DNA of 64,000 nucleotides from an uncultured Gammaproteobacteria bacterium. Its GTDB lineage: Bacteria; Patescibacteriota; Patescibacteriia; CAZGFX01. The first letter of the stretch is position 1, and every line of letters starts with the position of its first letter. Shown in pieces: positions 1 to 55,045 of the stretch. The stretch is from positions 85,389 to 149,388 of the forward strand of contig CAZGFX010000002.1 of the NCBI GenBank assembly GCA_964524845.1, in the 5' to 3' direction. A model generated the notes under the pieces. The model worked only from the letters and a program-made list of their open reading frames with translations. It did no database searches and had not been told where the DNA came from. Both the position numbers and the translations under genes were made by a program.

Positions 1-463
1 TTAATAAACGAAGACCTGCCGTATCAACAATATTCGTTTTCTTTCCTGTTTCAAACTCTGTATCAAAATTCCATTTATATAAAACTCCGGAAGCGCTTCC
101 TATTTCAGGAACAGCATCCATATGTGCAACTATTTTTTCTAGATAATCCGGTTCAAAAAACATGTCTTGATTAACCATAAAAACATATTTACTCTTAGAA
201 AGTCTCATGATCATATTATGCGCCGCTGCGAAACCTATGTTTGAACTTTTTTTAATAAGTTTCACTTCTGGGTATTTTTGATATATATGAGTTGCTGTTG
301 AGTCGTGTGATCCGTTATCTAAACATATAATTACAAAATCTTGGAATGTTTGATTTAAAATACTCTCCAGACAAAAATCAATATAGCGCTCTCCATCGAG
401 CGTTACCAGACTTATTATAACTTTTGGCACATTATGACGAACGTTGTTTTGATTCTGTTCCAT
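1..463 (-). CDS. glycosyltransferase family 2 (N-terminal part; C-terminus runs off the window)
   Basis: Not in ORF track because edge-truncated. ATG at 463-461; translation MEQNQNNVRHNVPKVIISLVTLDGERYIDFCLESILNQTFQDFVIICLDNGSHDSTA...VNQDMFFEP has the GT2 N-terminal fold signature; no stop before position 1. Confidence 0.7.
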   Translation of the reverse strand, partial: MEQNQNNVRHNVPKVIISLVTLDGERYIDFCLESILNQTFQDFVIICLDNGSHDSTATHIYQKYPEVKLIKKSSNIGFAAAHNMIMRLSKSKYVFMVNQDMFFEPDYLEKIVAHMDAVPEIGSASGVLYKWNFDTEFETGKKTNIVDTAGLRLL

Positions 464-1973
464 ATAAAAAAATAATCCATGAAATTATAAGAAATATCAT
501 GATTCCAAGAGGATGATTAAGGTATGGAGTCGTAATATGAGTAAACAGAAGTGCCAGAAGTGCCAGAAGTAATATGCCCCAAACTCCATACGAAAACGAT
601 GTTAAGATGTTCTTTTTCATTATAACTAAAAGATCAATAATCATTCTCCTAAATAAAAATAATAATAATAAAATACCGACAATACCAAACTTAAGCCAAA
701 AATCAAGATATCCCCACTCAAATGCGTATGTAGTATACATTCCTGAGGGTTCTTTTGCCAAAATACGAGGATCAGTTGAAAAATAAGTTACCGTTTTTCC
801 AACCCCCGCTCCTATAATCCAGTTCTCGGTTATTGATTTCCATAATGGCCCCAGAAGTTGTAAACGAGCCTCTCCGGCCGCATCGTCTGTTGTAACAAAC
901 CTATCTTTTAGAAAACCACTGCCTCTACCCGACAAATCAAGTTGGTTTATATAAACAACGAATGAAGCAGAAACAATTAAGGTAACAATACAATAAAGTA
1001 CGATACCGCCAAATCTTTTCAAAGATAAAAATCGTTTTAATATAATATAACTAAGAAAAACAGTTACAGCGAGAAATGTTCCGAGCCACATACTTCTAGA
1101 AAGACATAGTATAAGTGTGGACAGAAAAACAATATTAAAAAATATAAGCGCCTTGTTTTTTCTCAAAATATTTAGAAACGTTTCTTTCACACCTCTTGCC
1201 TTGTCAATAATAACAGCAAGTGTTCCTACATACGCTATCATCGTATAAATATGATTTTGGAAAAAAATTCTGTAATAAGGCCCCTGAATATAAGTTATCT
1301 CAGCAATTCCTGTATCTCGAAGCCATTTATAAAAAATACTGAGACTGTGTCCAGGTACATACCCAAACACTAGATAAACAAATAATGATTTTACAGAAAT
1401 TAACAAAGCTCCTGCAAATAAAATTGTTATTACTGATTTTATAACCTCTGATTTGTTTTTTATAAAAAATACAGGAAATATTAGAGCTAAATAAAGATAA
1501 TTATTAACATCATTGAACATATATGAAACGTTATTTCCGCGAAAATATGCAACACAAACCGAGAAAACTATCAAAACAAAAAATAAAATATAATATCGTG
1601 ATTTTATATATTCAAATCTCTCGCGCCATATATTTTTATAATCTTTGTAATTAATGATTGCATATACGAAAAATACTAGAAAAAACAACAAAAACATGGC
1701 CAAACGAATCGACAAAGTAATTTTCCCTTCATATTCTGGTAATGTAATTGGAGTAAATAGAAGATATCCTTTTGATCCAACAATGTTTTCCAGAATAATT
1801 CCAAATAGTCCATATTCGATATTTTTTATACATAAAAACAAGAAAAACAAACAAAAAACACCAAATATAAATGGCGCGTATGATGGTGTTGTGTATGAAA
1901 ACCAGGAAACAAACTCAAACGCGATTAGCCCCGCTAGTATATATGCAACGTGTTTGAAATTAATCTCTATCAT
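432..1973 (-). CDS. polytopic membrane protein, O-antigen ligase/polymerase-like (Wzy_C-type)
   Basis: 513 aa, about 10-12 predicted hydrophobic helices with a larger loop; sits in a GT/flippase cluster. Family assignment by architecture only. Confidence 0.45.
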   Translation of the reverse strand: MIEINFKHVAYILAGLIAFEFVSWFSYTTPSYAPFIFGVFCLFFLFLCIKNIEYGLFGIILENIVGSKGYLLFTPITLPEYEGKITLSIRLAMFLLFFLVFFVYAIINYKDYKNIWRERFEYIKSRYYILFFVLIVFSVCVAYFRGNNVSYMFNDVNNYLYLALIFPVFFIKNKSEVIKSVITILFAGALLISVKSLFVYLVFGYVPGHSLSIFYKWLRDTGIAEITYIQGPYYRIFFQNHIYTMIAYVGTLAVIIDKARGVKETFLNILRKNKALIFFNIVFLSTLILCLSRSMWLGTFLAVTVFLSYIILKRFLSLKRFGGIVLYCIVTLIVSASFVVYINQLDLSGRGSGFLKDRFVTTDDAAGEARLQLLGPLWKSITENWIIGAGVGKTVTYFSTDPRILAKEPSGMYTTYAFEWGYLDFWLKFGIVGILLLLFLFRRMIIDLLVIMKKNILTSFSYGVWGILLLALLALLFTHITTPYLNHPLGIMIFLIISWIIFLYGTESKQRSS

Positions 1974-2851
1974 AAGTCTTTGTTCTTGTGTTTAAATAAT
2001 CCTATTTTTTTCATTAACTCATGAATAAATGCCAGTAATATAGAAATATATAGGAAAGGAAATAAAATCACATACGAAAAAAAACCATAATTCTTTTTAA
2101 AATACAAAGCGACGCTTTTTATAAACATCTTTTGTCTAGCAACTGTTCTGTGTTTTGCAAAAGACTCTCCTTTCACATGTATAATACGCGTATGAGGATA
2201 ATACAAAACTGTATATCCTTTCTTCTTCGCATTAAAACATAAGTCAGCATCTTCCATCCATATCCAAAAACGCTCATCAAAACCACCAAACTCTTCAAGT
2301 AATCTTCTCGAACAAAACATAAAAGCACCCATAACCGAATCTACTCGTTGTATTATAGAATAATCAAAATCTTTCATAAGATAAGAATTTATAAAAGAAG
2401 GGAAAAAATTAGGAATTTTTAAAAGCACCAATAATTGGTCCACAATAGAAATGTCTTTACGAACAGACGGTTGAATACTCATATCTGGATATCTAAGCGA
2501 ACAACCAATGATACCTATATGATTTTTTTCTCTAAATAAATCAAATAATTTTAAAAGAGATTGATCTATAAACTCTGTATCAGGATTTAAAAAAAGTACG
2601 TGCTCCCCTGTCGATATACGAAACGCCTGATTATTTGCATAAGCGAATCCTTTGTTTTCTTTGTTTTCTATCAAATTAACAAAAGAAAATGATTTTGCGA
2701 CATCACGAGACTTATCTGAAGAATTATTATCAACAACAAAAACCTCCCACTCTGTAAGATATGAGGAATAATAGCGCTGGATAGACTCAAGACATTTTGT
2801 GAGCAATTCCTCTGCATTCCAACTAATTATAATTATTGAGAGACGCTTCAT
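1970..2851 (-). CDS. glycosyltransferase family 2
   Basis: LSIIIISWNAEELL...VVDNNSSD...LNPDTEF motifs typical of GT2. Confidence 0.8.
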   Translation of the reverse strand: MKRLSIIIISWNAEELLTKCLESIQRYYSSYLTEWEVFVVDNNSSDKSRDVAKSFSFVNLIENKENKGFAYANNQAFRISTGEHVLFLNPDTEFIDQSLLKLFDLFREKNHIGIIGCSLRYPDMSIQPSVRKDISIVDQLLVLLKIPNFFPSFINSYLMKDFDYSIIQRVDSVMGAFMFCSRRLLEEFGGFDERFWIWMEDADLCFNAKKKGYTVLYYPHTRIIHVKGESFAKHRTVARQKMFIKSVALYFKKNYGFFSYVILFPFLYISILLAFIHELMKKIGLFKHKNKDL

Positions 2852-4071
2852 GATGGTAATAATTTAAATATTTCATCAACCATAAATTTTTCTCTGCTTT
2901 CCCACGAGTGTTCTTCGGCCGCCGATATACCAAGTGTTTTTATACGATTTCTCTCATCATTTCCTATATTTACAAATTTATCAATAGCCAAAACAAAATC
3001 ATCCGAAGTTGATGCAATTGTTACAATATCCGGAAATAACTCTGCTCCTGACGTTGGTGTGGCCACAATAGGAAGCCCTGCAGCTAGATAATCATACATT
3101 TTCATTGGGTTATTTGATTTCACAAACTCATCATTTTTATGAGGGATAATACCTACGTCAAACTGTTGAACATACATTGGAAGCTGATCGTACGATTTAC
3201 GTCCCAAAAAAAATACATTTTGAAGTTTTTGAAGTGGTGATAAATCTATCTCATCCTTTGTTACGATTCCGAAAATTTCATTTTTCCAATTACGAGACGT
3301 TGGCCCAATAAGTACAAACGAATATTCTGGGCGAGCTTTCGCGCATGCATATACCAAATCAACATCAAAACGCTCTTGTATTGTTCCTGTGTATCCAATA
3401 ATTGGTTTTTTGATATTTCCAATATCACGAGTGATAAGTTTTTGCTCTTTTTGAAAATGACTACTATCTATTCCATTTGGCACCCAAAACGCTTTTTTGT
3501 GAGTTGAAAAAAGGTTTTTTTGTTCTTTTGAAACAGTAAAAATTATATCCGCATGAGTATCAATAAAAGCATATCGTTCCAAAAGAAGATCTTTGTATTT
3601 TGGATAACTTGGGTGTTCTGCCCAATTATCAACCGCGTCAAAGACATTAAGTTGTTGACCGAGTCTACCATCCATATAATCAACCAAAAAAGGGAAAAAT
3701 GACCATGTAACAATATTTCCAAAACCTAGTTCTGATACATGTTTTTTGATTCGTTCATATATCTTATCGCTCTGAGCAATTGTATAGATTGTTGAATAGA
3801 CAAAAACCTTATCATGAAGCGCCGTCAATGATTCGTGAAGGTTTTTTGAAACAATCGTACCGCTTTTGATTGGTGTAATGAAATTTTCTATAAAATTACG
3901 GACCGATCTTTTCTTCGTAACAGGAATATAATCAATATAAAATATTTTCCCTATTCTAGGATCTGATATAAGTTTTTTAAAAATATTATAATTACGATTG
4001 TTGATTCCGCGAAGAACCCACTCATTATAACACGACATTCCGAACATTATGATGTCAATTTTTTTCTCCAT
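2848..4071 (-). CDS. glycosyltransferase, GT1/GT4-like (GT-B fold)
   Basis: C-terminal KMYDYLAAGLPIVATPTSG sugar-nucleotide binding type motif; 4-bp overlap with neighbours. Confidence 0.65.
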   Translation of the reverse strand: MEKKIDIIMFGMSCYNEWVLRGINNRNYNIFKKLISDPRIGKIFYIDYIPVTKKRSVRNFIENFITPIKSGTIVSKNLHESLTALHDKVFVYSTIYTIAQSDKIYERIKKHVSELGFGNIVTWSFFPFLVDYMDGRLGQQLNVFDAVDNWAEHPSYPKYKDLLLERYAFIDTHADIIFTVSKEQKNLFSTHKKAFWVPNGIDSSHFQKEQKLITRDIGNIKKPIIGYTGTIQERFDVDLVYACAKARPEYSFVLIGPTSRNWKNEIFGIVTKDEIDLSPLQKLQNVFFLGRKSYDQLPMYVQQFDVGIIPHKNDEFVKSNNPMKMYDYLAAGLPIVATPTSGAELFPDIVTIASTSDDFVLAIDKFVNIGNDERNRIKTLGISAAEEHSWESREKFMVDEIFKLLPS

Positions 4072-5221
4072 ATGAAAATAATGTACGCATGATTGCGTTT
4101 CTTAATATCTGAGACTGAATTCTATAGTTAAAACGACGCTCAATACGAACCCTTCCATATTCAACAAAATGTTTACATAATTCAGAATCATCCAGTAGCT
4201 GTAAAATACGTTCCGCGGCTGCGGTCGAATTCAAAGGATCAACCAAAAATCCGTTTTTTCCATCTTCAACAGCCTCAGATACTCCACCAGAATTACCAGC
4301 AACCACAGGAAGTCCCATAATATTAGCTTCTAGAAAAACTATTCCGAATCCCTCAACATCTCCGTTTGGAAGTTCTCTTGGAAGAAGCGAGAATACGGAA
4401 CTAATCCTATACAACTGATTACGATCATAAGATGAAAAAATATTTGTAATAATCATAGCTCTATGACCAACTCCATGAGTATCAATAAGCGACCGCAGCC
4501 GCGCCTCTTCGGGTCCACCTCCTACAATAATCAAAAATGTATCGGGATCTTGTGTTTGAATATCTGCAAAAGCGCGAATCAGCATATCAAAACCTTTTCG
4601 TTCAACAAGTCTACCTACACTTATAATAATTTTTGAATTGGGAGGAATGTGAAATTTTTCACATATATCCTCTTTTTCTCCCTGTTTAAGTGGTAACGGT
4701 TCTTCTAAATTAGTAGCTGGATACACGACTTCTGTTTTTTCTTTTGATATTCCGTACTGCAAAGCGACCGATCTCGTCATTTCAGAGTTCAACACAACTA
4801 ACGATGCATCCTTCAAAACCAATGATACATTATTGAATGTCTTATCTTTTGTAATAAATGGAACTTTTATATCCATTCCATGAGCTATAACAACATAAGG
4901 TATACCTCGAGCACGCGCAATACGACGAACGGCCTGGCCTGATATGACTGGTTGTCCAGCAATAATGAGATCTGGTTTTGTTATACGAACAATGTGCCTC
5001 AGTTTCCACCACAAAAGAATCCATCTCGGACGAAACACATGAGAAAGCATTGCTATTCGTATAACATTAAATGGGAATTTTTTAACAGTTTCTCCTGATT
5101 TTGTTTTTGGAGCCACAACAGTAACGACGTCTTGTCGAAGTTCAGAACAAAGACCGTTCCCATATTCGCCTATACCACCTCTCATAGGAGGAAAATCGAC
5201 TGTTACATACAATATGTTCAT
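4055..5221 (-). CDS. glycosyltransferase family 4
   Basis: EGFGIVFLEANIMGLPVVAGNSGGVSEAVEDGKNGFLVDP, classic GT4 EX7E region. Confidence 0.8.
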   Translation of the reverse strand: MNILYVTVDFPPMRGGIGEYGNGLCSELRQDVVTVVAPKTKSGETVKKFPFNVIRIAMLSHVFRPRWILLWWKLRHIVRITKPDLIIAGQPVISGQAVRRIARARGIPYVVIAHGMDIKVPFITKDKTFNNVSLVLKDASLVVLNSEMTRSVALQYGISKEKTEVVYPATNLEEPLPLKQGEKEDICEKFHIPPNSKIIISVGRLVERKGFDMLIRAFADIQTQDPDTFLIIVGGGPEEARLRSLIDTHGVGHRAMIITNIFSSYDRNQLYRISSVFSLLPRELPNGDVEGFGIVFLEANIMGLPVVAGNSGGVSEAVEDGKNGFLVDPLNSTAAAERILQLLDDSELCKHFVEYGRVRIERRFNYRIQSQILRNAIMRTLFSYGEKN

Positions 5222-6669
5222 GGCCGTCTTATAAATTGTGTAATATATTTAGTATCCTGTATTGTAATTCCTTTCAACAAAATGAGAAGTCCACAATATA
5301 CAATTATTCCCGCAATTACCTCAATATAAAAATTACTATTGAGCCACCAAACAACCAAAAGCATGGCACATGAAGCAATAAGTGATGGGTATATTAGAGA
5401 AGCGAATACCGAAGCCTTCCATTCTACAATATCTTTTATAATCCAAAATCCTCGTACGGTCATAAAAATATAAGTTAGTAGCGCGGCGATCGCGGTTCCA
5501 ACATGCGCATAAAAAGGAATTAAAATAATATTTAATGTAATATATAAACCAACAGCAATTCCCAGCATAATCACGTTTTTGTTATGACGAAACGATCCAT
5601 TTATCAAAGCACCAGAAGAATAGCTTACGAAAACAAACGGAATCGCACATGCTAATAGTACAAGTGCTGAAGTTGCCGGCGCATACTCGTTCCCATACAA
5701 CTTATCAATTAATACATCGGCTACGCCGATTATACCGAAACAAATCGGCAATGATATTATTATGAGATATTTAAATATTGCATAAAATACCTCTTTTAAT
5801 TTTTCTCTATTCTCTTTGAAATATGATGTATATGCAGGATAAAGAGATGCTGCGACAGCTGCCGGAATAAATTGAAATGCAAAAGTCGTTTTAAAAGCAA
5901 CTCCGTAAAAGGAAACAAATTTTTCCCCAGCAAACTTCATAAGAAGCATGGGATCAAAATATGTCAAAAGACGTGTAAAAAGCCCGAGGAAAAAAAATGG
6001 TAATGCTCCAATCAAAATAACTCTAGCAACTTCTTTGTCCCATCGAAACTGTGAAAAACCTATTTTTCTAATAAACAAAAATCCTGCATAAAGAAAATTT
6101 CCTGCGCTTCCACACAAAAGAGCGAAAACTAAATAACGAACATCGACACCAAATACAAGAACAAATGTTATTCCAGCAATAGCTATGACTGATTGGAATA
6201 CGACAACAGAAATACTCTCATAATTAAGTTTATGAAGACCTCTAAATATAGAATATATCGATGTAGTTACCATATCTAGTATTGCCACACCAACCGTCAG
6301 AGCAATCAATCCATATAGAGACGAATCGTAATTTCCTATTAATAAAGTTCCAATAACTAGGCCATAAGTTATGATTGTTAAAGGAAGTTTAATTATAATA
6401 GAAACGAAAAAAAGTTTTCCAACACGAGTAATATCTTTTGCGACTTCTCTTATAAGATATCCTGCAACACCAACATCAACAAAAATTCCAAAAACCGATC
6501 CAAAAGAAACAATAAGTAAATACTGTCCCATAAGATCTTTTCCGAGCATCCTGGCGGCAAAAGCAAAATACACAAAAGCAACCACCTTTTGAAGAACGGA
6601 GGCGGTTACAAACATAATAGTGTTCTTTGATACGCTATGTGCCATATACATATAGCGGATATAAAGCAT
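5218..6669 (-). CDS. polysaccharide/oligosaccharide flippase (Wzx-type, MOP superfamily)
   Basis: 483 aa, about 12-14 TM helices, N-terminal pattern typical of Wzx polysaccharide biosynthesis proteins; clustered with GTs. Confidence 0.7.
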   Translation of the reverse strand: MLYIRYMYMAHSVSKNTIMFVTASVLQKVVAFVYFAFAARMLGKDLMGQYLLIVSFGSVFGIFVDVGVAGYLIREVAKDITRVGKLFFVSIIIKLPLTIITYGLVIGTLLIGNYDSSLYGLIALTVGVAILDMVTTSIYSIFRGLHKLNYESISVVVFQSVIAIAGITFVLVFGVDVRYLVFALLCGSAGNFLYAGFLFIRKIGFSQFRWDKEVARVILIGALPFFFLGLFTRLLTYFDPMLLMKFAGEKFVSFYGVAFKTTFAFQFIPAAVAASLYPAYTSYFKENREKLKEVFYAIFKYLIIISLPICFGIIGVADVLIDKLYGNEYAPATSALVLLACAIPFVFVSYSSGALINGSFRHNKNVIMLGIAVGLYITLNIILIPFYAHVGTAIAALLTYIFMTVRGFWIIKDIVEWKASVFASLIYPSLIASCAMLLVVWWLNSNFYIEVIAGIIVYCGLLILLKGITIQDTKYITQFIRRP

Positions 6670-6765: not shown

Positions 6766-6792
6766 ACAGAAAACACGCCCGAACGGGCGTGT
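6766..6792 (-). terminator. rho-independent terminator downstream of rpsI
   Basis: Hairpin ACACGCCCG-AAC-GGGCGTGT at 6772-6791 with a U-run on the minus-strand transcript. Confidence 0.5.
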
Positions 6793-6821: not shown

Positions 6822-7226
6822 TTAACGTTTCGACCATTGAGGAGCCTTACGAGCGCGCTTCAATCCTGGTTTCTTGCGTTCTTTTTCGCGAGGATCTCTT
6901 TTCAAAAGACCAGCCGCGCGAAGTTGTGATTTAAGTATAGGATCGTGAAAAAGAATTGCGCGCGCAACACCAAGTCTTATCGCTTCCGCTTGAGAACGAA
7001 CGCCTCCCCCAATAACCTTCACAGTAATGGTACCAATCGTTGTAAGATTAGAAATAACGAGAGGTTCCTTTATAAGTATGTTTAAATCAGCTTGCGGAAA
7101 ATATTTGGAAACATCTTTATCATTAACAATAATATCCGGCTTACCTCCGAGAGTAATACGAACTCTTGCTGACGCTGTTTTTCGTCTACCAACCGCTTGA
7201 ATAAAATTATCTTTTTTGAAAGCCAT
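6822..7226 (-). CDS. rpsI: 30S ribosomal protein S9
   Basis: GRRKTASARVRI...GGGVRSQAEAIRLGVARAI...KRARKAPQWSKR. Confidence 0.95.
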   Translation of the reverse strand: MAFKKDNFIQAVGRRKTASARVRITLGGKPDIIVNDKDVSKYFPQADLNILIKEPLVISNLTTIGTITVKVIGGGVRSQAEAIRLGVARAILFHDPILKSQLRAAGLLKRDPREKERKKPGLKRARKAPQWSKR

Positions 7227-7236: not shown

Positions 7237-7596
7237 CTAGTTATTAATCATTAAATGTTTCACGAGCTCAGCGCGATGTTTGTTCTTTGGAAGCATATTA
7301 TATATCGTTCTTCGAAGAACTTCTGCTGGATTTTTTTTCATCACTTCTTCCATTTTTCTACTCTTAAGACCTCCCGGATGCATTGAAACACGATAATACT
7401 TTTTCTGAGTAAGTTTATTACCAGATACTGTCATTTTTGAAGCATTATTTACTGTTACTCTGTCATTATTAAGAATATAGGGAGTATACGAAATACGGTG
7501 TTTTCCTATAAGAAGAGAAGCAACCTTGCTAGCAAGCCTTCCGACCGGCTGCGCAGTAGCATCAACAATATGATTTTTTATTTCGTTCTTAAGCAT
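7237..7596 (-). CDS. rplM: 50S ribosomal protein L13
   Basis: DATAQPVGRLASKVASLLIGKH...VTVNNASKMTVSGNK; rplM-rpsI order conserved. Confidence 0.95.
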   Translation of the reverse strand: MLKNEIKNHIVDATAQPVGRLASKVASLLIGKHRISYTPYILNNDRVTVNNASKMTVSGNKLTQKKYYRVSMHPGGLKSRKMEEVMKKNPAEVLRRTIYNMLPKNKHRAELVKHLMINN

Positions 7597-7611: not shown

Positions 7612-7962
7612 TTATACGAACTCTATCTGAACAACGTGTGATCCATCACCTGGACGATGTCCTGCCTTTATAATACGAAGATATCCTCCTTGTTTTGACT
7701 GATATCTAGGCGCAAGCACTTCTTTAATTTTCTTTGCCGCGTTTTCTGTAGGAAGATATGCGAGAAGCTGTCGATAAGAATGAAGATCTCCTTTTTTACC
7801 CTTGGTAATAAGTTTTTCTACAATCGGACGTATTGCTTTTGCTTTGGCTTCTGTTGTTTTAATTTTTTCACGAACAATAAGCTGTTCTGCTAAATTTTTA
7901 AGCAGACTTCGGCGTGGGCCAAGCGTTCTTCCAAGTACAACTGTTTTTCTCGCGTGTCTCAT
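7612..7962 (-). CDS. rplQ: 50S ribosomal protein L17
   Basis: MRHARKTVVLGRTLGPRRSLLKNLAEQLIVREKIKTTEAKAKAIRP...YLRIIKAGHRPGDGSHVVQIEFV. Confidence 0.95.
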   Translation of the reverse strand: MRHARKTVVLGRTLGPRRSLLKNLAEQLIVREKIKTTEAKAKAIRPIVEKLITKGKKGDLHSYRQLLAYLPTENAAKKIKEVLAPRYQSKQGGYLRIIKAGHRPGDGSHVVQIEFV

Positions 7963-7980
7963 AGTATATACATCAAAACA

Positions 7981-8685
7981 TTATAATGTTTGTTGATTAT
8001 CATCCCCTGCACACAACGCAAAATGATCAACAAGGATTTTAGCAGCTTTCTTAAAAGCTTGCCCAGGCATAATAGTACCATCCGTCTCAATGGTCAATAC
8101 GACCTTCTCAAAATTGGTCGCCTGTCCTACGCGAGTCATCTGAATATCATACCCAACCTTACGAACAGGAGAAAAAAGAGCATCAAGAACAATCATACCA
8201 ACAGGCAAATTACTTGCATCACGAGCCTCCACAGGAACATATCCTATGCCTTTTTCAATTACAACCTCCATTTCAAATATGGCCTTTGGATCAGTAAGTG
8301 TCGCAATATGAAGATCTGGATTTGCAATTTCAACAGCGGCATTTTTTTCAAAATCACCAGCAGTTATTTCACCCTTCTTTCCACTCACTTTCATACTTAT
8401 AAGTATCGGTCCGTCTTCATTTAAACGAACACGAAGCTTCTTTATATTAAGCATGATCTGAACAATATCTTCTTTCACGCCAGGAATACTTGTAAATTCA
8501 TGATCAGCTCCTTTTATCTTAAATGACGTTGGTGCGGCACCATCTAACGAGGAAAGAAGCACTCTGCGAAACGAATTCGCCAATGTAACACCATAACCAG
8601 GTGAACACGGCTCAATGACAACCTTTGTAGAAACAGGTGTCTCGTCTTCGGTATAAATTTTTGATGGAAGTTGTATTTCGTACAT
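7981..8685 (-). CDS. rpoA: DNA-directed RNA polymerase subunit alpha, N-terminal domain only (no alpha-CTD)
   Basis: 234 aa; aligns to the alpha-NTD dimerisation/assembly domain (ANSFRRVLLSSL...GVKEDIVQIMLNIKKL...) and stops 18 bp before rplQ, leaving no room for a CTD. Confidence 0.9.
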   Translation of the reverse strand: MYEIQLPSKIYTEDETPVSTKVVIEPCSPGYGVTLANSFRRVLLSSLDGAAPTSFKIKGADHEFTSIPGVKEDIVQIMLNIKKLRVRLNEDGPILISMKVSGKKGEITAGDFEKNAAVEIANPDLHIATLTDPKAIFEMEVVIEKGIGYVPVEARDASNLPVGMIVLDALFSPVRKVGYDIQMTRVGQATNFEKVVLTIETDGTIMPGQAFKKAAKILVDHFALCAGDDNQQTL

Positions 8686-8714: not shown

Positions 8715-9338
8715 TTACTTACGTGAATATAATTCAACGACGAGTTTCGGATCAAACTCAACATGTCCCATATCTACTACATTTGGCAACGCTTTAATTT
8801 TTGCTGTGAGACGATCTGTGTCAGATATAATCCAATCAGGAACTATAATATCCTTGTTCTTCTCTTTGTTTTTTACAAACAAAGGAGAATTCAGTGCAGA
8901 TTCTTTTATGGATATTGTATCTCCTTGGGAAACCTGAAATGAAGGTATGTTCACCTTCTTATCATTTACCTTAATAATTCCATGTGAAACAAGTTGACGT
9001 GCCTGTGGTCTCGTCAAAGCGAATCCTGCGCGATAAACAACATTATCAAGACGACCCTCGAGAAGTGAAAGAAGATTATCACCAATAACTCCTTTTTTGT
9101 TATGAGCTTGCTTGTAATAATTGAAAAACTGTCGTTCTAGAATTCCATATGTTCTTTTTGCCTTTTGTTTTTCTCTCATTTGTCTTCCATATTCCGTTAA
9201 ACGAGCAAAACGATCCTCCGGATTCTTTCCTGGTGCATGAGGTCTTTTCTTGAGAATACGATCATATTTCTCAGTACCAAAAAGGTTTGTTCCTTCTCGT
9301 CTACAAAGTCTTGCTTTTGGTCCTAAATATCGTGCCAT
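8715..9338 (-). CDS. rpsD: 30S ribosomal protein S4
   Basis: MARYLGPKARLCRREG...LEGRLDNVVYRAGFALTRPQARQLVSHG. Confidence 0.95.
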   Translation of the reverse strand: MARYLGPKARLCRREGTNLFGTEKYDRILKKRPHAPGKNPEDRFARLTEYGRQMREKQKAKRTYGILERQFFNYYKQAHNKKGVIGDNLLSLLEGRLDNVVYRAGFALTRPQARQLVSHGIIKVNDKKVNIPSFQVSQGDTISIKESALNSPLFVKNKEKNKDIIVPDWIISDTDRLTAKIKALPNVVDMGHVEFDPKLVVELYSRK

Positions 9339-9347: not shown

Positions 9348-9746
9348 TTAAATTCTTCTTGGTTTCTTAGGTCTACATCCATTATGTGAAATAGGTGTTA
9401 GATCTTTTATCGAAAGAATGGTCAATCCATTTGCATGAATAGCTCTGACAGCAGCCTCACGACCAGCCCCTATTCCTCTTACAACTACATCGACCTCTTT
9501 AATTCCTGTATATTGTGCTTTATCTATAGCATCTTTTACAATCATTGAGGCAGCATATGGAGTGGCTTTCTTCGCGCCTTTAAATCCAACTACTCCGGCA
9601 GAAGACCAGCTTAAAACGCCTCCATGAGAATCGGCAAGAGTAACAATTGTATTATTGTATGTAGCCTGTACAAACGCCATGCCTTTCTTGACTTGTCGTT
9701 TTGTTTTCTTCTTGCTTACTTCCTTTTTCTTTATAGTTGTTGCCAT
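9348..9746 (-). CDS. rpsK: 30S ribosomal protein S11
   Basis: AFVQATYNNTIVTLADSHGGVLSWSSAG...VVVRGIGAGREAAVRAI. Confidence 0.95.
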   Translation of the reverse strand: MATTIKKKEVSKKKTKRQVKKGMAFVQATYNNTIVTLADSHGGVLSWSSAGVVGFKGAKKATPYAASMIVKDAIDKAQYTGIKEVDVVVRGIGAGREAAVRAIHANGLTILSIKDLTPISHNGCRPKKPRRI

Positions 9747-9763: not shown

Positions 9764-10147
9764 TTAAGTCTTTGTTAAAGCTCGTTTACCACTTCCAGCA
9801 GTATTGCGAACATTGCCCCGAACGGTACGAGAATTTGTCTTAGTTGTCTGTCCTCTTACAGGAAGTCCTTTTGCATGACGAGATCCTCTAAAACAATGAA
9901 TTTCTTTTAAGCGTTTTACATGTTGCATAATTTCACGCTTTAAATCACCTTCTATCTTAAATTGTTCTACACTCGCACGAAGTTTATTTACCTCATCTTC
10001 TGTCAGATTTTCAACTTTTGTATTCTCATCAATTCCAATCTGTGAAAGAATTTTCTTTGCACGAGGAATACCAATGCCGTAAATATACGTCAATGCTATA
10101 ACAACTCTTTTTTCTTTTGGAAGATTTCTTCCTGCAATACGTGCCAT
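9764..10147 (-). CDS. rpsM: 30S ribosomal protein S13
   Basis: [26 protein letters not shown]...; start moved to the in-frame ATG at 10147 (track start 10159 adds MNII). Confidence 0.93.
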
Positions 10148-10290: not shown

Positions 10291-10575
10291 TTAATAACGA
10301 TAGGTGATACGTCCTTTGGTAAGATCGTATGGAGTCATCTCAACCTTTACTTTATCTCCTGGTAAAAGCTTAATTTGATTCATACGCATTTTACCAGAAA
10401 GATGAGCTATGATTTTATGACCATTGTCGAGCGTAACCGCGAACTTCGCTCCCGGTAGAAGCTCGTCAACCATACCAGCATACTCAATGAAACCTTTTTT
10501 ATTTGCTTGCGGTCCGACATTTGGAGAAAATCTCCTCGAATCAGACAGCTTTTCACCGTTAAAAGTGTTATCCAT
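10291..10575 (-). CDS. infA: translation initiation factor IF-1
   Basis: Core [65 protein letters not shown]; about 25 aa N-terminal extension as called, true start may be downstream/non-ATG. Confidence 0.88.
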
Positions 10576-10753
10576 TACTTGTTTAGATTAAAAAATATAT
10601 TGAACACATAAATACGATGCGTTACTACGCATTGTGTATTTACATTATTTATGCTTATTTAACAAGTAGCTGGGCATAATTATATGTAAATAATGGCAAA
10701 AGTCAACTCCTTTTAGCCTCTTATCAAGCTACTTATTCACACATAATTACCCG

Positions 10754-20923: not shown

Positions 20924-22411
20924 TCACTTTAAAACAAATGTTTCCTCAACTGGCGCACGAAGCGTTTCCGAAAGCACATACGTACTCTGTGAATCAGTAC
21001 ATACTCCGTGTATTGGTGTGTTATCTATACGACGAGCCGTTTTAAACTCTATGTAAAATGGAGAATTATTAAATTCCTCTGGGTATGATACGAATTCTGG
21101 AGGTGTGTTTGGTGTATTATATGTAAATACAAATGTACTTTTTGACTGAGCTGGAATTTTAATAGGAAATACTATTGTTTTTGCACCGTATTCATTATAA
21201 AAATCATACATATCAAGCGGAAGTACTTTTTTGTTTTCTTGCTGAATTCCAAAAACCTCAGCTATTGCATCTGGGTGTACATATATTTTTTCAAGCATCG
21301 TCACATCATTGGAAGATGTGTTTTTATAATCAATCCATAAAGTATTTTTGAGCGACACATTCTCATATGTCATTCTTCTCTCATATGATAATGATAAATT
21401 TTTCTTACATTCTGACTCCATACAATCATGATGTATTGAAAAAACATCTTTTGTTTTCTGACCAAAAGGATATACTGGTAAATTATTTTTTAAAAAAACA
21501 TCACGAAGAGTCATATTGGTAGTATATACATACATGTTCCCATTTTGAATTGCATAAAAAAGCTTATCATATGAAAAACCAGAGCACGAACCTTGTTCTG
21601 TAGTACTTATAAGCCCACACAAAACATCTGTCGAGAAATTATCAATTTTTATTAATGTATCAATTCCATATTTTGCACGAAGAGTTTCAAAGACATAAGG
21701 AGGCCTAGCTATCCACTTATCATTTTTTAAATCATCGTTGTTTTTATAATACCGAGCCATCATCTTCTTCTCCTCCTCGTTTATTACAAAAGGTATTTGA
21801 TCGCTCGTGCTTTCTAATTTCACACTGTCGTTGTATTTTTTATACACTGAAAATTTCTGTAATTTTCCACCAAAAAAATCATATTCTTCACCACTCACAG
21901 TTGCTACACCGAGCGTTTGTAATGAGTTTTTTATAGAAACATAAATCTCTTCGCCTTTGAATTTCGCCGCATTCGTATTAATGCTTCCTGAAAGATTTTT
22001 TACAAATTGTTCAACGGGTGATTTAAAAAAACTAGTTTGTATATCATCTGTCTTTATAAAAGAAGTAAATTTCTCATCAGAAAAATTATAACCCAATATG
22101 TACTCTTTTGTATGTTCTATAATTGATTTAACAATATGTATGTCTGAACGAAATCTAGGTAGAATATCAGCGATCATAATACGATCAATTTGTTTTTCCA
22201 TCGTCTGTAGTTTCTCCAACACAAGGTCAGACCTATTCTCATCAGTTGAGCTTGTAAGAATATTAATAAGCGAATGAACGCGCACGACATCAAGAACAAT
22301 TATAAAAACAAGTGCGATACCACATATTATATAAGCAAAAAACCGTATTTTCTTTAAAACAGAAATTTTCCTGTATGTATCAAGATCCTTCACAGGACGC
22401 GTTTCTTCCAT
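20924..22411 (-). CDS. hypothetical membrane-anchored protein (last gene of ATPase module)
   Basis: 495 aa; single N-terminal TM (FFAYIICGIALVFIIVL), large extracytoplasmic domain; 12 bp downstream of the ATPase gene. Confidence 0.5.
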   Translation of the reverse strand: MEETRPVKDLDTYRKISVLKKIRFFAYIICGIALVFIIVLDVVRVHSLINILTSSTDENRSDLVLEKLQTMEKQIDRIMIADILPRFRSDIHIVKSIIEHTKEYILGYNFSDEKFTSFIKTDDIQTSFFKSPVEQFVKNLSGSINTNAAKFKGEEIYVSIKNSLQTLGVATVSGEEYDFFGGKLQKFSVYKKYNDSVKLESTSDQIPFVINEEEKKMMARYYKNNDDLKNDKWIARPPYVFETLRAKYGIDTLIKIDNFSTDVLCGLISTTEQGSCSGFSYDKLFYAIQNGNMYVYTTNMTLRDVFLKNNLPVYPFGQKTKDVFSIHHDCMESECKKNLSLSYERRMTYENVSLKNTLWIDYKNTSSNDVTMLEKIYVHPDAIAEVFGIQQENKKVLPLDMYDFYNEYGAKTIVFPIKIPAQSKSTFVFTYNTPNTPPEFVSYPEEFNNSPFYIEFKTARRIDNTPIHGVCTDSQSTYVLSETLRAPVEETFVLK

Positions 22412-22423: not shown

Positions 22424-24316
22424 TTATCTTTTATGAATCGAGATTGGTTGACGTGAAAGCGCCTCTTTAAGGCTTATGGGAGCGGGTTGTGTCACTTGTT
22501 GTAATGGTGTTTGTTGTTCGGTGTGTTCTTTCTCACGAGAAACAGGAGACACACCAAAACGAGAAGGTGTTTTTGATAATAGTGGATTTCCCATTGATGG
22601 ATTTCCCATTGATGGTGATTGGGACGGCTTGTTTCTTTCTCCTTTTGTAAAAGAGTTTTCGCGATCTATAATATCTGTAATACGATGTTCTATTGCGTTT
22701 GGATTTTCCATTATCGCTTTTTGACGTCTGTATACAGCAAGACAATCTTTACAGAGCACTGGGCGTTTCCCGTCTGGTTTAAATGGTACCATTGTTTCAT
22801 TTCCACACCCATCGCATTTAGTTTCAAACATTTCTTTTTGTGCTGGCAAATCGCCCGTTTCTGTTTGTGGATATTGTGCGCTTTGCGTATTTTGTGAAAA
22901 AGAAGAATATTGACTAGGTGCTTGTATGTGCACTTCTTGTGTTTTTTCAAAAACAGGTTGCTTGGGAGATGTTTGTGTCGAATAAGGCGATGGTTCCTCT
23001 ACCTTGTGTACAACGGCTGTACTTAATATGCCACCAGGAGCATGTGCCCACAAACGAATACCCTCTTCAACCTCAGCACGCGGTCGAGCATATTTCTTTC
23101 TGGTGAGTTCTGTAATTATTTTTTCCGTTTCAACGCTTTTTGGAATTTTAAATGTGTTTAGTGTGTTTGCTGAAAACGCATCAGACGTAACCCCATTCAC
23201 CATAAGCTTAATATAACATGTTGCCAACTTGAGATTTACAAGGTCGTTTTTCGTAAAATTAGGAGCAAACTCTTTCTCAAGGAAATCAGCATCATCGGCA
23301 CCAACTCGAAATGAAAGAAGTGTTCCAACATTTCCGAACACTGCGTTGCGAACCTCATCAATAAGCTGTTGAATATACTGATGCGCTATAATAAGATTCA
23401 AACGATATTTTCGGGCTTCTGATAATATTCCAGCGAAAGACTCTGTAGCAAAGTTTTGAAACTCATCAACATATAAATAAAAATCCGGACGTTCGTTTTC
23501 ATTAACAATATCAACCCTGCTCATAGCCGCCATCTGAAGCTGTGTAATAATCATAGCACCAAGAAGTGCTGAATTATCCTCGCCAATTCTTCCTTTTGAA
23601 AGATTAACGATTAGAACCATCTTATTATCCATGATATGACGAATATCGACAGGGCTTTTTATCTGGCCAACGATGTTCCTCATCATTGTTGATGATAGAA
23701 ATTGTCCGACTTTGTTCTGTATAGGAGCCGTTGCTTCAGCTTTGAGTTTGTCCGGATATTTAGGATACTCATCAAGCCAAAATGTTCTTACCGATGTGTT
23801 CTTTACATATTGTAATACATTTTTACGATAATCATTATCAACCAATATTCTCATGATTCCAAGCATCGTACTTTCGGGATATTCCAAAAGAGCGAGAATA
23901 GCATTTCGAAGCACATACTCAAGGCGAGGACCCCATGAATCAGCCCATATCTTTTTAAATACAGCGACAAGTCCTGATGCGACCAGATGGCATTGGGCAG
24001 GATTATGAACGTGCATAACATTAAAACCTATTGGAAACTCCGTATCTGAAGGATTAAAATACACAATATCTTCATATCTGTTTGGCGGAATCATTTTAAT
24101 AATATCTTCGGCATATTCTCCGTGCGGATCAATCAGGGCAACACCCTCTCCATTATAAATATCCTGTATAATCATGTTTTTGATAAGAGTCGTTTTTCCC
24201 ATACCCGTCTTACCAACAATATAAAAATGCTTGCGACGATCTTCTCGCCTAATACCAAACTTCACCGATTTGTTTCGATAATTTGTTTCAGCGAATATAT
24301 TTAAATCTTTTGGCAT
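22424..24316 (-). CDS. VirD4/TraD-like coupling-protein-type P-loop ATPase (FtsK-HerA superfamily) with C-terminal C4 zinc ribbon
   Basis: Walker A GKTGMGKTT, Walker B-like FYLYVDEFQNF; C-terminal CDGCGNE...CKDCL plus low-complexity tail. Start set to ATG at 24316 (track start 24367 is TTG and overlaps upstream gene). Confidence 0.65.
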   Translation of the reverse strand: MPKDLNIFAETNYRNKSVKFGIRREDRRKHFYIVGKTGMGKTTLIKNMIIQDIYNGEGVALIDPHGEYAEDIIKMIPPNRYEDIVYFNPSDTEFPIGFNVMHVHNPAQCHLVASGLVAVFKKIWADSWGPRLEYVLRNAILALLEYPESTMLGIMRILVDNDYRKNVLQYVKNTSVRTFWLDEYPKYPDKLKAEATAPIQNKVGQFLSSTMMRNIVGQIKSPVDIRHIMDNKMVLIVNLSKGRIGEDNSALLGAMIITQLQMAAMSRVDIVNENERPDFYLYVDEFQNFATESFAGILSEARKYRLNLIIAHQYIQQLIDEVRNAVFGNVGTLLSFRVGADDADFLEKEFAPNFTKNDLVNLKLATCYIKLMVNGVTSDAFSANTLNTFKIPKSVETEKIITELTRKKYARPRAEVEEGIRLWAHAPGGILSTAVVHKVEEPSPYSTQTSPKQPVFEKTQEVHIQAPSQYSSFSQNTQSAQYPQTETGDLPAQKEMFETKCDGCGNETMVPFKPDGKRPVLCKDCLAVYRRQKAIMENPNAIEHRITDIIDRENSFTKGERNKPSQSPSMGNPSMGNPLLSKTPSRFGVSPVSREKEHTEQQTPLQQVTQPAPISLKEALSRQPISIHKR

Positions 24317-24320
24317 ATTT

Positions 24321-25901
24321 TTATTTTTTATTATCGAGATTAAACATCGTGTCAGGATTATAATCAAGACTTAATTTTTGAGCATCTTGTCCTTCTTTAG
24401 ACATAATTTCTTCATCTTCTTCTTCGCCGCTTGGAATAAATGCTTTCATAAAATCCTCCCCTGGCTCATTTGTTCGTGCAGAAAGTGAAACATCTAACTC
24501 AGATGCAACAGGAAGACCGGGAGACACGGCATTCGGATCGTACCTGTGTTCATATTCTTTATTTGTCATCATGTCATCATTGATAATCGCCATTGGAACA
24601 CCTCCTCCAGGAAGAATTTTTCCGACGGCTTGTATATCAAAAGACGGATCTCCTATTGGCAACGTAACAGGAGCGGATGATTTTGCCGCTTCTACAGTCT
24701 TAATGAGAGTTGCTTTTATGTTTGCGGCTGGGAAGTGATACATCGTGGCAAGTTCCTGCCCTGTCATAATCATCGGTGCATCTCCTCCCATACTTCTTTC
24801 TTTAAATAAACGTACCATCTCTCCTTGTTTTGCAGACAATTTTTCAGGAACTTTGAAATAAGCGTCTTTTATTTCTGTTACGGATGTGGAACTTGGCACA
24901 ATACTATTAAGCCCAAGTGAATTAAACTGATTTAATGCTCCTATAATTGCAACGATGCCTCGTTCTTTTGAATAAACTTTTTTATGAGCAATATAAAGAA
25001 GACGCATTTTCGTCTTGAATGCATATTGAGAAATTTTTTCAGCAACTCCTTTTGCGACTTGTTGTAGATACGGATCATCATCTTTTGCTGCTGTTTTTTC
25101 TTCTTTTTTCTGAGCAGCAGACCCGGCTGGAATACCAAATGATAATATCCATTCGCTGAAATTCCATAGTGCATCAACAACCCACTGAACAAACTTATCT
25201 CCTGTATGTTCTTTTGCGGCTGGTTTTCCATCCTTACTCTTAAGACCAGCCAGAAACTTCTTTCCATCTTCGTTCCATTTTGAATCCTGAGGAGTAATTA
25301 TAAATTGTAGTGCCACCATTTCTCCTGTGCGTATTTTTGACAAATTTTCAATTATTGATGATATCGGATCAAATTTATCACTAATTTGAGAAAACGTCTT
25401 TATTGGAATATAACTTTCTTTTTTAAAAACAAAATCATTTGCCCATACCGTATATGATGATTCTATTTCATGAACATCTTTTGGAACATCGTCCATATAA
25501 TCTCTGACTTCTGCTATTTCAGCATCCGGATACTGTGCGAATAATGCTGCTTCTATAAGATCACGAATTACAACTGGGCATCTTACCAAAAATTGAATAT
25601 ATCCTTCTATACTGATTAGCTCAAAACTGATCGTATGACCAATAGAAGAAGATAGAGCAACAAAAACATGTTCAACGGCCATAAGGCCTTGTGTATTAAC
25701 ACGAGGAATATCAATTGCGAGAAGAATGTATTTTATTTCTTCTTTTTTCTTTTTTGATTTTTCTTTTTCATTATGTGCTGTGATCAGCATATATAAAAAA
25801 GCTCCCAGGATTAAAAAAGCACCACCATACGTAAAAAACAGTATGGTGAGTTGCCAGGGACTTTCCCCTAAAATATGTATGAGTTCGGCAATCATCGGCA
25901 T
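24321..25901 (-). CDS. hypothetical membrane-anchored protein (first gene of ATPase module)
   Basis: 526 aa; N-terminal TM (LTILFFTYGGAFLILGAFLYMLI), acidic C-terminal tail; stop 4 nt from ATPase start. Confidence 0.5.
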   Translation of the reverse strand: MPMIAELIHILGESPWQLTILFFTYGGAFLILGAFLYMLITAHNEKEKSKKKKEEIKYILLAIDIPRVNTQGLMAVEHVFVALSSSIGHTISFELISIEGYIQFLVRCPVVIRDLIEAALFAQYPDAEIAEVRDYMDDVPKDVHEIESSYTVWANDFVFKKESYIPIKTFSQISDKFDPISSIIENLSKIRTGEMVALQFIITPQDSKWNEDGKKFLAGLKSKDGKPAAKEHTGDKFVQWVVDALWNFSEWILSFGIPAGSAAQKKEEKTAAKDDDPYLQQVAKGVAEKISQYAFKTKMRLLYIAHKKVYSKERGIVAIIGALNQFNSLGLNSIVPSSTSVTEIKDAYFKVPEKLSAKQGEMVRLFKERSMGGDAPMIMTGQELATMYHFPAANIKATLIKTVEAAKSSAPVTLPIGDPSFDIQAVGKILPGGGVPMAIINDDMMTNKEYEHRYDPNAVSPGLPVASELDVSLSARTNEPGEDFMKAFIPSGEEEDEEIMSKEGQDAQKLSLDYNPDTMFNLDNKK

Positions 25902-27162: not shown

Positions 27163-28065
27163 TTAACGTGAGCGATACTTATCCCACAATATTAATAATG
27201 GACTTGCAATAAATATTGATGAGTATGTACCAACAATAATACCAATAACAAGTGCCAAAACGAAATATTGAATTGTCGTTCCACCAAAGAAAAACATTGA
27301 GAGAAGAACAAACAAGGCTGTCGAAGACGTATTAATAGAACGAACAAGCGTTTCATTAATACTTGTATTAATAATATCTTTAAATGAGCTATGTTTATCT
27401 CTTAAAAGATTTTCTCTTACTCTATCAAACACAACAATTGTGTCATGAACGGAGAAACCAAGAACTGTAAGAAGTGCTGTTATAAACAAGCTATCAATTT
27501 CAACCCCTTTGAAATGTCCTAAGAAACTAAATATTCCAGCTGTTATTGTAACATCATGCACTAGTGCGATTATGGCCGCAAAACCATACACAAACGATGA
27601 TATTGGTTTTGATACCTTACGAAATGCATATGCTATATATATAACAATACCTATAAGAACTAATATAATAGAAAGGTAAGCGTTTCGTTTCGTTTCGCTT
27701 CCTATAACACTTCCTATAGAATCAAAACGACGCTCTTCTATCTTGTTTTGATCTTTCTCATATGTTTTTTTGATATCGTCTATAAGTTTTGCATGATCGT
27801 CAGCCGAAAGTTCTTTCGTCTTTATGACAATCGACGTATCTCCAAGTGGTTGTACTTTCGCATCAGCAAAACCATTGTCTTTTAAAACACTTGCTATGTC
27901 TTTGGAATCAGGACGAGGACCCGAAAAAGATATTTCGACAAGCGATCCTCCTGTAAAATCAATATTTGGCTTGAGCCCCCAAGCGATAAGTGCTGTGGCG
28001 CTTATAAGTACCAACAAAACCGACAGGCCGAGAAAAATCTTGTTATATTTTACAATGTTAAACAT
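27163..28065 (-). CDS. secF: protein translocase subunit SecF
   Basis: 300 aa; FTGGSLVEISF..., 6 TM, directly downstream of secD. Confidence 0.9.
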   Translation of the reverse strand: MFNIVKYNKIFLGLSVLLVLISATALIAWGLKPNIDFTGGSLVEISFSGPRPDSKDIASVLKDNGFADAKVQPLGDTSIVIKTKELSADDHAKLIDDIKKTYEKDQNKIEERRFDSIGSVIGSETKRNAYLSIILVLIGIVIYIAYAFRKVSKPISSFVYGFAAIIALVHDVTITAGIFSFLGHFKGVEIDSLFITALLTVLGFSVHDTIVVFDRVRENLLRDKHSSFKDIINTSINETLVRSINTSSTALFVLLSMFFFGGTTIQYFVLALVIGIIVGTYSSIFIASPLLILWDKYRSR

Positions 28066-36239: not shown

Positions 36240-37682
36240 ATGAAAATGAACGACATTTTACGGCAAGTTTTTCACAATTTTGTCTGGTATGGAACTGCCG
36301 AGGGAGTTACATTAGGAATCGGTTTCATTGTTATATCACTTATTTCTCGATATCTAGGAAGTGAGCAATTTGGGTATTATACTTATGCTTTTGCATTTGC
36401 CGGTATTTTTACCGTTATTATAGATGCTGGTTTAACTGTTTTTGCATATAGATATATACGAGATTTTCCTCAAAAAATAGCATTTTTCAGAAAACATGTT
36501 GCATATATCAAAATTATTTTTGGTATCATATCAGCATTATTCATCGTTGGATTACAGTTTTTGATACTTGGGAAAAACGATTATGTCGTCAGCATCACGG
36601 TTATAATTCTTTTACATTTCTTATTTTTATCATTATCCGATTTTTTACGAGCGCTTCTTCGTATATACAACAACATTCGTACCGAAACAATATTTCGAAT
36701 TTTTCAATATATATTACTCGTTATTTTGATATGGTGCTGTATATTACAAGACGCTGGACTTATGGGCATAGTATGGTCATATGCGATAAGCGCCGGAGTA
36801 GGATTTTTTGGCATATGGATATATACGACAAGATATTGCAAAAATAACACGTGCGAAAAAAAAGATGAAAAAGAAAAAACAATTGATACACAATATGCGT
36901 TTTCTTTATTAAAAACATCATGGCCACTTGCTGCATCCGCTTTGTTCATATCGATATATTATTATATTGATACAATTTTAATTGATTTTTGGTGGCCAGC
37001 AAACGAGCTTGGTTTGTATGGAGCCGCATATAAACTTCTCATAATATCTCTTACCGGAGCATTTGCGCTTGTAAATATACTTCAGCCACTTCTTCCAAAA
37101 ATAAAAAAAGAACATCCGAATATTTTTAACGATTTTCTTAAAATAATAATCCGAGGAATCGTTATTGTAATTATTCCAATTATCATAGCGTGTGGCATAT
37201 ATGCACGACCTATTGTCGTATTTATATTTGGCGAATCGTTTGCGGATGCGGCGCCCGTATTCCAAATATTGATATTTTCAGCTTTTTTTACTTATATTGG
37301 AGCGACACTCAGCGCAACTCTTCAGACTGTTTTTTCTCCTATTACATATACGAAAATTGTAGCGTTTGGCGCTTTTTGTAACATAGTACTTAATCTGCTT
37401 GTTATTCCTCATTATGGAATTACGGGCGCCGCATGGGTTACACTTATTACAGAGTTCGTTGTCACAGTTTATATGCTTAAAAAAACAGCAGAGAATACTG
37501 GTATATACGATATTTTTAATTCGCGATTTATTTGTTTCGTACTTGTTGTATGCGGTATACTTATAACACCATTCTTGTTCGCGGATTATTATACTTCTTT
37601 ATTCGTTTTTCTTGTGATGTGTTGTATATATATTGTAATAACTTTTTATTGGTTTTTTAAAAAGATTTTTCGATACCAATGA
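36240..37682 (+). CDS. polysaccharide biosynthesis protein / flippase (Wzx-like, MOP superfamily)
   Basis: 480 aa, about 12-14 TM; 4-bp overlap (ATGA) with next gene. Confidence 0.7.
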   Translation: MKMNDILRQVFHNFVWYGTAEGVTLGIGFIVISLISRYLGSEQFGYYTYAFAFAGIFTVIIDAGLTVFAYRYIRDFPQKIAFFRKHVAYIKIIFGIISALFIVGLQFLILGKNDYVVSITVIILLHFLFLSLSDFLRALLRIYNNIRTETIFRIFQYILLVILIWCCILQDAGLMGIVWSYAISAGVGFFGIWIYTTRYCKNNTCEKKDEKEKTIDTQYAFSLLKTSWPLAASALFISIYYYIDTILIDFWWPANELGLYGAAYKLLIISLTGAFALVNILQPLLPKIKKEHPNIFNDFLKIIIRGIVIVIIPIIIACGIYARPIVVFIFGESFADAAPVFQILIFSAFFTYIGATLSATLQTVFSPITYTKIVAFGAFCNIVLNLLVIPHYGITGAAWVTLITEFVVTVYMLKKTAENTGIYDIFNSRFICFVLVVCGILITPFLFADYYTSLFVFLVMCCIYIVITFYWFFKKIFRYQ

Positions 37683-39784: not shown

Positions 39785-39817
39785 CACGCGCATTATCCAA
39801 ATAATGTTCTTGGTGTT

Positions 39818-42183: not shown

Positions 42184-42187
42184 ATGT

Positions 42188-43649: not shown

Positions 43650-43650
43650 A

Positions 43651-44322: not shown

Positions 44323-44333
44323 ACAAATAATAA

Positions 44334-45383: not shown

Positions 45384-45467
45384 TGTTGTATATAAAAACT
45401 ATTACGATACCTACATTGTATCAATCAGACGCCGTTTTAACAAGGAGCTAAAATACTAAAAAATGGC

Positions 45468-46217: not shown

Positions 46218-46292
46218 AGGTTTCCTAATACAAAATAATTATTATAATATAAGTATAGCAACAAATATAATTCTTTCATACAAAAACCATAT

Positions 46293-55032: not shown

Positions 55033-55045
55033 TATACAAAAACTG

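Follow-up and report, generated by a model that had tools for sequence, protein, structure and literature searches.

An RNA polymerase alpha subunit without a carboxy-terminal domain in the Patescibacteria

[quoted passage not shown] Its C-terminal domain (CTD) mediates the effect of UP elements, the class I activation that CRP-like factors exert and several further regulator contacts. The rpoA gene in the DNA analysed here, a stretch of 64 kb that we call the window, is much shorter. This raises the question of whether the gene is complete and, if so, of how a polymerase built on its product would find and regulate its promoters. Our analysis indicates that this rpoA is very probably genuine and complete, and that it comes from an uncultivated Patescibacteria (CPR) bacterium whose lineage has lost the CTD together with the linker, which would leave an RNAP with no alpha-borne module for contacting DNA or activators.

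The rpoA gene and its product

The rpoA open reading frame runs on the minus strand from an ATG at 8685 to a TAA at 7983-7981 and comprises 234 codons. Since the stop is TAA, the recoding of UGA that occurs in some CPR lineages is no issue for the end of the gene. An earlier note on this DNA, made from the sequence alone, had described a protein of this length that stops 18 bp before rplQ, with no frameshift or split gene. The coordinates agree with this description, and the arrangement is reproduced in an independent sample and in the nearest genomes. In the Logan assembly of run SRR12133403 we found 4,705 identical bases around rpoA. A close relative from JGI metagenome 3300075153 (P0001) is 97% identical, encodes 234 aa and has the same 18-nt spacer to rplQ; the two proteins share the C-terminus C[AV]GDDNQQTL.

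The gene lies in a conventional alpha operon with the order infA-rpmJ-rpsM-rpsK-rpsD-rpoA-rplQ-rplM-rpsI (Table 1), and thus occupies the canonical rpsM-rpsK-rpsD-rpoA-rplQ position. Coding space for a CTD downstream of rpoA is excluded, because 18 nt are too short to hold it. The spacer keeps the frame of rplQ and contains no in-frame stop, a state that we judge to be due to chance. Pfam detected no extra domain on either neighbour, L17 or S4, and both are of ordinary size.

Table 1. Coordinates of the rpoA operon and of other features of the window
Feature	Position	Strand	Basis or remark
Glycosyltransferase and flippase cluster, first	432-6669
Terminator-like hairpin (8 bp stem, 6 GC pairs) and T-run, 3' of rpsI	6773..6792	minus	consensus match only
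rpsI (S9), last gene of the operon	6822..7226	minus	PF00380
rplM (L13)	7237..7596	minus	PF00572
rplQ (L17), 116 aa, ordinary length	7612..7962	minus	PF01196, residues 20-116
rpoA-rplQ spacer, 18 nt, tgttttgatgtatatact	7963..7980	minus	between rpoA TAA and rplQ ATG at 7962
rpoA, 234 aa, alpha-NTD only	7981..8685	minus	Pfam, TIGR02027, PDB phmmer, AF2, Foldseek
rpsD (S4), 207 aa, directly upstream of rpoA	8715..9338	minus	Pfam
rpsK (S11)	9348..9746	minus	PF00411 on identical Logan contig
rpsM (S13), 127 aa from ATG	9764..10147	minus	start as called on Logan contig
rpmJ (L36), 38 aa	10161..10277	minus	sequence and position only
infA (IF-1), first gene of the operon	10291..10575	minus	PF01176
Candidate operon promoter TTGACT-16 nt-TATAAT, 11/12 matches, alaS-infA gap	10679..10706	minus	consensus match only
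Alanyl-tRNA synthetase, 604 aa	10754-12568	minus
Large Pfam-less ORF	20924-22411
TrwB/VirD4-like type IV coupling ATPase	22424-24367	minus
Large Pfam-less ORF	24321-25901
Sigma70_r4 and HARE-HTH protein, 360 aa	25942-27024	minus	Pfam, structure model
SecF	27163-28065		follows SecD
SecD	28070-29812	minus
Glycosyltransferase and flippase cluster, second	36240-46754
ORF of 1396 aa	49526-53716	minus	no Pfam match at E<=1e-5
DUF5667 protein, follows ECF sigma	53872-55155	minus	listed ORF overlaps sigma gene by ~110 nt
ECF-type sigma (Sigma70_r2 and r4_2)	55046-55606	minus	Pfam

Pfam recognized two alpha-NTD families in the product, PF01193 at residues 25-222 (E 5e-20) and PF01000 at residues 56-172 (E 8.7e-29), and no match to the alpha-CTD (PF03118) was obtained even at E<=1. 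TIGR02027 aligned over profile positions 2-208 of 298 and scored 239.5, above its cut-off of 227.8. Each of the eight NF0035xx alpha equivalog models matched over only some two thirds of its profile and, for this reason, scored below its cut-off. In a phmmer comparison with the PDB, residues 10-222 correspond to residues 14-228 of E. coli alpha. Aligned with E. coli alpha, and in agreement with the phmmer alignment, residue 224 falls near E. coli 230 and the last residue near E. coli 240, which is the start of the inter-domain linker. The translation had previously been read as an alpha-NTD ending where the linker begins, and an alignment with full-length RpoA had been proposed as a check; that reading stands on the Pfam, TIGR02027 and PDB results alike. 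The double helix-hairpin-helix domain on a flexible linker that characterizes RpoA is absent from this protein.

An AF2 model built on 39 sequences (mean pLDDT 87.6, pTM 0.79) ends in a helix at residues 207-225, followed by nine disordered residues. Foldseek superposed it at TM 0.83-0.91 on the alpha chains of solved RNAPs from Mycobacterium, Thermus, E. coli, Clostridium and others. In E. coli alpha, the residues involved in core assembly are R45, L48 and E80, which contact beta, and K86, V173 and V180, which contact beta' (PMC8321222). Four of them are identical in the window protein (R41, L44, K82 and V174, equivalent to R45, L48, K86 and V180), and the other two are conservatively replaced (Q76 for E80, L167 for V173); T34 and S46 are conserved too. 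Moreover, the R, L and K that correspond to E. coli R45, L48 and K86 do not vary among 144 relatives. Hence, RpoA of the window is a complete alpha-NTD, consisting of the Rpb3/Rpb11-type dimerisation domain and, inserted in it, the domain that binds beta/beta'. With the whole fold and the assembly residues kept, it is equipped to dimerise and to nucleate core assembly, and it presumably does assemble into the core.

Compared with the canonical RpoA (E. coli, 329 aa; TIGR02027), the window protein is homologous over the full length of the NTD: it is 38-47% identical to alpha chains of known structure, folds alike, keeps the beta and beta' contact residues and is encoded at the same place in the operon, between rpsD and rplQ. 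It differs in having neither the flexible linker nor the CTD of about 80 aa. An assembly platform that resembles the alpha-NTD and carries no alpha-CTD is also found in the archaeal Rpo3 (subunit D) and the eukaryotic Rpb3-AC40. Identity with archaeal subunit D was rejected, as NF001988 scored 14.1 bits against a cut-off of 153. The window RpoA is clearly a bacterial alpha and is expected to pair with itself, unlike Rpo3, which pairs with Rpo11.

C-terminal states among relatives

The closest named relatives of the window proteins belong to CPR phyla. A non-exhaustive pattern scan over GTDB, with each species represented by a single genome, yielded 43 rpoA loci, the 19 closest of which, at 48-53% identity, come from Patescibacteria, Magasanikbacteria, Uhrbacteria and some mislabelled MAGs. 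Nine of the MAGs with Patescibacteria-type CTD-less rpoA loci (L002, L003, L005, L012, L013, L015, L017, L018 and L038) are GTDB representatives titled 'uncultured Gammaproteobacteria bacterium', and these titles look like mislabels. All 19 closest genomes encode an alpha of 232-296 aa without a CTD, and in every one of them rplQ directly follows rpoA, at spacers of -11 to 115 nt and in variable phase. A profile HMM built from 23 CPR CTDs plus that of E. coli was positive in each of the 24 other loci, which belong to Saccharibacteria, Dojkabacteria, Doudnabacteria, Bacilli and Mycoplasma. The comparison of rpoA length across related genomes that had been suggested earlier is therefore clear, and it corrects one assumption of the earlier note: a CTD-less alpha is less unusual than was thought, since most of the closest relatives have one. 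The window gene encodes a complete alpha-NTD without a CTD at the canonical rpoA locus, and this state is stable across the lineage.

Larger protein collections gave the same picture. Among the 120 best database hits (NTD identity 50-57%), 95 have no CTD. In a representative library of 1.84 billion proteins clustered at 50% identity, which contained 8,530 alpha-like clusters, the CTD was absent from 56 of the best 150 cluster representatives.

The C-termini of these relatives fall into three states, namely a canonical CTD, an NTD followed by an acidic linker with a lysine-rich or RGRP end, and a bare NTD as in the window. The canonical CTD was present in 23 of the 120 best hits, mostly Doudnabacteria-like proteins of 304-323 aa, and two further hits carried CTD fragments at contig ends. 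Bare NTDs accounted for 16 hits, including a Magasanikbacteria protein of 235 aa (P0036) that occurs on 18 contigs. The remaining 79 proteins have a low-complexity tail of 23-81 aa without CTD signal (for example P0009, P0028, P0039, P0062, P0069 and P0072). The terminal 15-mer of 54 of these 79 carries a net charge of at least +4, and 43 combine this basic end with an acidic stretch. Twelve contain a K/R-RGRP-K/R core, that is, an AT-hook motif (12/79 tailed proteins, 12/120 best hits). Such an ending might stand in for the CTD by binding DNA in the minor groove. Our literature search found no report linking an AT-hook with RpoA. In a neighbour-joining tree of the NTDs, too crude for counting independent losses, the bare forms are scattered among the tailed ones, which suggests that they arose by repeated trimming.

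Some alphas deviate from these states. A basic linker is combined with a CTD in P0084 and P0118, P0375 (404 aa) carries a tandem pair of CTDs, and P0337 (501 aa) extends beyond its CTD in a long K/A-rich tail of the histone-H1 kind. P0248 and P0304 each join two different NTDs in one polypeptide, and P0247 shows an exact internal duplication that is probably an assembly artefact.

Alphas without a CTD have been described before, in Hodgkinia, in Tremblaya and, in one sentence, in Parcubacteria (PMC8321222). The same source credits Sheveleva et al. (2002) with a CTD-less rpoA in the Euglena plastid. For Parcubacteria it cites Nelson and Stegen (2015), whose main text does not mention the polymerase. 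All these cases resemble the window in their intact alpha-NTD and wholly lost CTD, and occur in lineages with small genomes and few transcription factors. However, Hodgkinia and Tremblaya live inside insect cells as symbionts, and CPR genomes are much larger than theirs, whereas the loss seen in the window belongs to a large radiation of environmental bacteria in which ECF sigma factors persist. Apart from PMC8321222, our literature search returned nothing specific on alpha-CTD loss in the CPR. As far as we searched, this loss has been mentioned without an accompanying analysis and is hardly characterised. The window rpoA is an ordinary example, typical of its clade, and adds to the known CTD-less alphas.

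Promoter recognition without an alpha-CTD

For assembly and basal transcription the alpha-NTD is enough, whereas UP elements and many activators require the CTD (PMC8321222). The engineered E. coli truncations alpha(1-235) and alpha-256 (Igarashi and Ishihama; Hayward et al., both as cited in PMC8321222) assemble core and holoenzyme. According to the same source, such truncations support basal transcription but neither UP-element use nor class I activation. Their end point is nearly equal to that of the window RpoA; the difference is that they are laboratory constructs, whereas the window represents a natural and evolutionarily stable state. Because the E. coli truncations behave in this way, we infer a corresponding mechanism for the window RpoA, including the loss of contacts with UP elements and activators. 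The 234-aa alpha-NTD would dimerise and nucleate the alpha2-beta-beta' core as in other bacteria, giving a polymerase that would carry no DNA-binding or activator-binding module on alpha. UP elements would go unrecognized and CTD-dependent (class I type) activation would be absent. Promoter strength and regulation would then rest on sigma-DNA contacts, sigma switching and repressors, and further regulation might come from factors touching sigma region 4, the alpha-NTD or beta/beta'. By analogy with these constructs, promoter recognition by sigma alone, with CTD-free regulation, would be the most likely arrangement.

The window contents are consistent with sigma-based regulation, as they include an ECF-type sigma factor and a protein with a sigma-region-4 domain. 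The ECF sigma and the DUF5667 protein that follows it look like a sigma/anti-sigma pair; given the overlap of the listed DUF5667 frame with the sigma gene, its true start probably lies later. CRP/FNR-type activators with a ligand-binding domain are reported to be absent from the CPR (PMC12531629). From this report and from the CPR affiliation we infer a host with a reduced genome and few CTD-dependent activators.

A stable natural polymerase without the CTD confirms that reduced-genome bacteria can live without this domain. As a further consequence, models of promoters and predictions of regulons that come from training on E. coli or Bacillus, with their A/T-rich UP regions and CTD-dependent activators, should not be applied to these CPR lineages. 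A systematic survey of the extent of CTD loss, of the AT-hook-like tails and of the sigma4-winged-helix protein would be worthwhile.

In E. coli, the CTD is important in vivo, and some compensation for its loss might therefore be expected. One could imagine that, in a large part of the CPR, the alpha-CTD has been replaced by other contacts with upstream promoter DNA, namely by acidic alpha tails with an AT-hook or lysine-rich end in many lineages and by the sigma-region-4 protein, acting in trans, in those with a bare NTD. We regard this as improbable; if true, these bacteria would recognize their promoters in a way known from no bacterial RNAP studied so far. The C-terminus of Myxococcus CarD offers a parallel for the tails. 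It is HMGA-like and histone-H1-like, with an acidic stretch that precedes either RGRP AT-hooks or a K/A/P-rich tail. Many tails of the relatives, not the window protein, are alike in having an acidic stretch and then a K-rich or RGRP end, and so share the layout of a minor-groove binder of AT-rich DNA that is tied to the transcription machinery. They differ in sitting on alpha instead of on a CarD/CdnL module, and their DNA binding is a prediction. The window alpha itself has neither the acidic stretch nor a basic patch.

Somewhat more doubtful still is the part of this idea that concerns the window directly, in which the Sigma70_r4 and HARE-HTH protein, non-homologous to the CTD, would dock on RNAP, bind DNA near promoters and so supply the upstream-DNA contact in trans. 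This protein unites a domain resembling region 4 of primary sigma factors with HARE-HTH, a fold shared with the domain through which the Firmicute delta subunit binds RNAP. In its structural model (pLDDT 90.8), an N-terminal domain is followed by four tandem winged helices. Foldseek matched the N-terminal domain, at 45-54% identity and an rmsd of 1-2 A, to region 4 of sigmaA in complexes with -35 DNA. The recognition-helix motif VTRERIRQ(I/V)E is kept, in the window as TLEEIGKHYGVTRERIRQVEN. With at least 2650 hits, the family is a large one; its members vary little in length and are 41-48% identical, and those that are named all belong to the Patescibacteria, which fits a putative housekeeping role. 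These features speak for a contact in trans, but similarity to the alpha-CTD is nil, and a sigma-region-4 domain is equally able to compete with sigma for the beta flap, as an anti-sigma-like or regulatory factor would. The protein could be an RNAP-associated factor that might either provide RNAP with an extra DNA contact or compete with sigma. As a hidden carrier of the alpha-CTD it was rejected, with an hhalign probability of 0.3% and no CTD-like Foldseek match.

A CTD function kept elsewhere in the genome, as a stand-alone CTD, a fusion to another protein or a second full-length rpoA, is slightly less probable again. It could be argued that the 64 kb searched are part of a contig of at least 309,728 bp, and that some bacteria possess two alpha genes, such as Francisella with alpha1 and alpha2 (6wmp). 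Against this, the six-frame translation of the window (1,381 segments, 64 kb) contained no CTD-like segment, the best E value of 0.52 being noise, and no stand-alone CTD was detected in 117.7 kb around rpoA of the 19 CTD-less relatives. Over all loci compared, the CTD HMM matched only the known CTD-bearing rpoA genes and detected every positive control. The search for a stand-alone CTD that the earlier note had called for was thus negative within the window and these relatives' loci. In addition, the truncated gene occupies the canonical rpsD-rpoA-rplQ position, and the non-exhaustive GTDB pattern scan gave one rpoA locus per genome. The truncation persists across lineages that are about 50% identical and their tails vary, a pattern that points to relaxed or changed selection on the C-terminus and not to a conserved split gene.

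That the short rpoA is an artefact or a pseudogene, owing its stop to a sequencing or assembly error or to a recent nonsense mutation, has only the a priori expectation of a longer bacterial alpha in its favour, and we rejected it as next to impossible in view of the rplQ start 18 nt on, the identical DNA in the contig of a second assembler, the matching length, C-terminus and spacer of the independent 97% identical sample, and the many diverged relatives in the CTD-less state.

Equally negligible is readthrough of the stop codon into an alpha-NTD-L17 fusion, which we rejected because spacer length and phase are not conserved among relatives: the spacer is a multiple of three without an in-frame stop and is equally long in the close relative, yet only 9 of the 19 CTD-less relatives have theirs in frame, the spacers of several open with double stops (e.g. 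TAATAG), TAA is the least leaky stop codon, and an open in-frame spacer of six codons would arise by chance in roughly one case in four. The reading we retain is that of a genuine alpha-NTD polymerase subunit whose lineage has lost the CTD.

Operon signals and other features of the window

In the candidate promoter upstream of infA, the -35 hexamer is directly preceded by an AAAA run, which is uninformative at 35% GC. The promoter scan as a whole was at chance level (26 sites against 21.6 expected), and only this site is noteworthy. The infA frame is listed as 94 aa, as is the Logan gene call, and its IF-1 domain is confined to residues 31-93; either IF-1 has an N-terminal extension of about 25 aa or the true start is internal. 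For rpsM, the longest listed frame reaches a TTG at 10159. The Rfam scan of the window returned two tRNAs only.

The alanyl-tRNA synthetase upstream of the operon retains the catalytic core and the SAD domain. The E. coli enzyme has 876 aa, and the C-terminal part is apparently missing here, which would be another domain loss in a housekeeping protein. SecD carries an inserted PpiC-type peptidyl-prolyl isomerase domain (Rotamase_3), placed after the first P1 segment and before the P1 head. The TrwB/VirD4-like coupling ATPase has a treble-clef zinc finger near its C-terminus and is flanked by the two large Pfam-less frames. The 1396-aa frame lies in the sole stretch of raised G+C in the window (0.42 against about 0.35). 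Finally, the two large clusters encode glycosyltransferases, Wzx-like flippases, a Wzy/O-antigen-ligase-like protein, an epimerase and a GtrA-like protein. They take up much of the window, which indicates a heavy investment in cell-surface polysaccharide.
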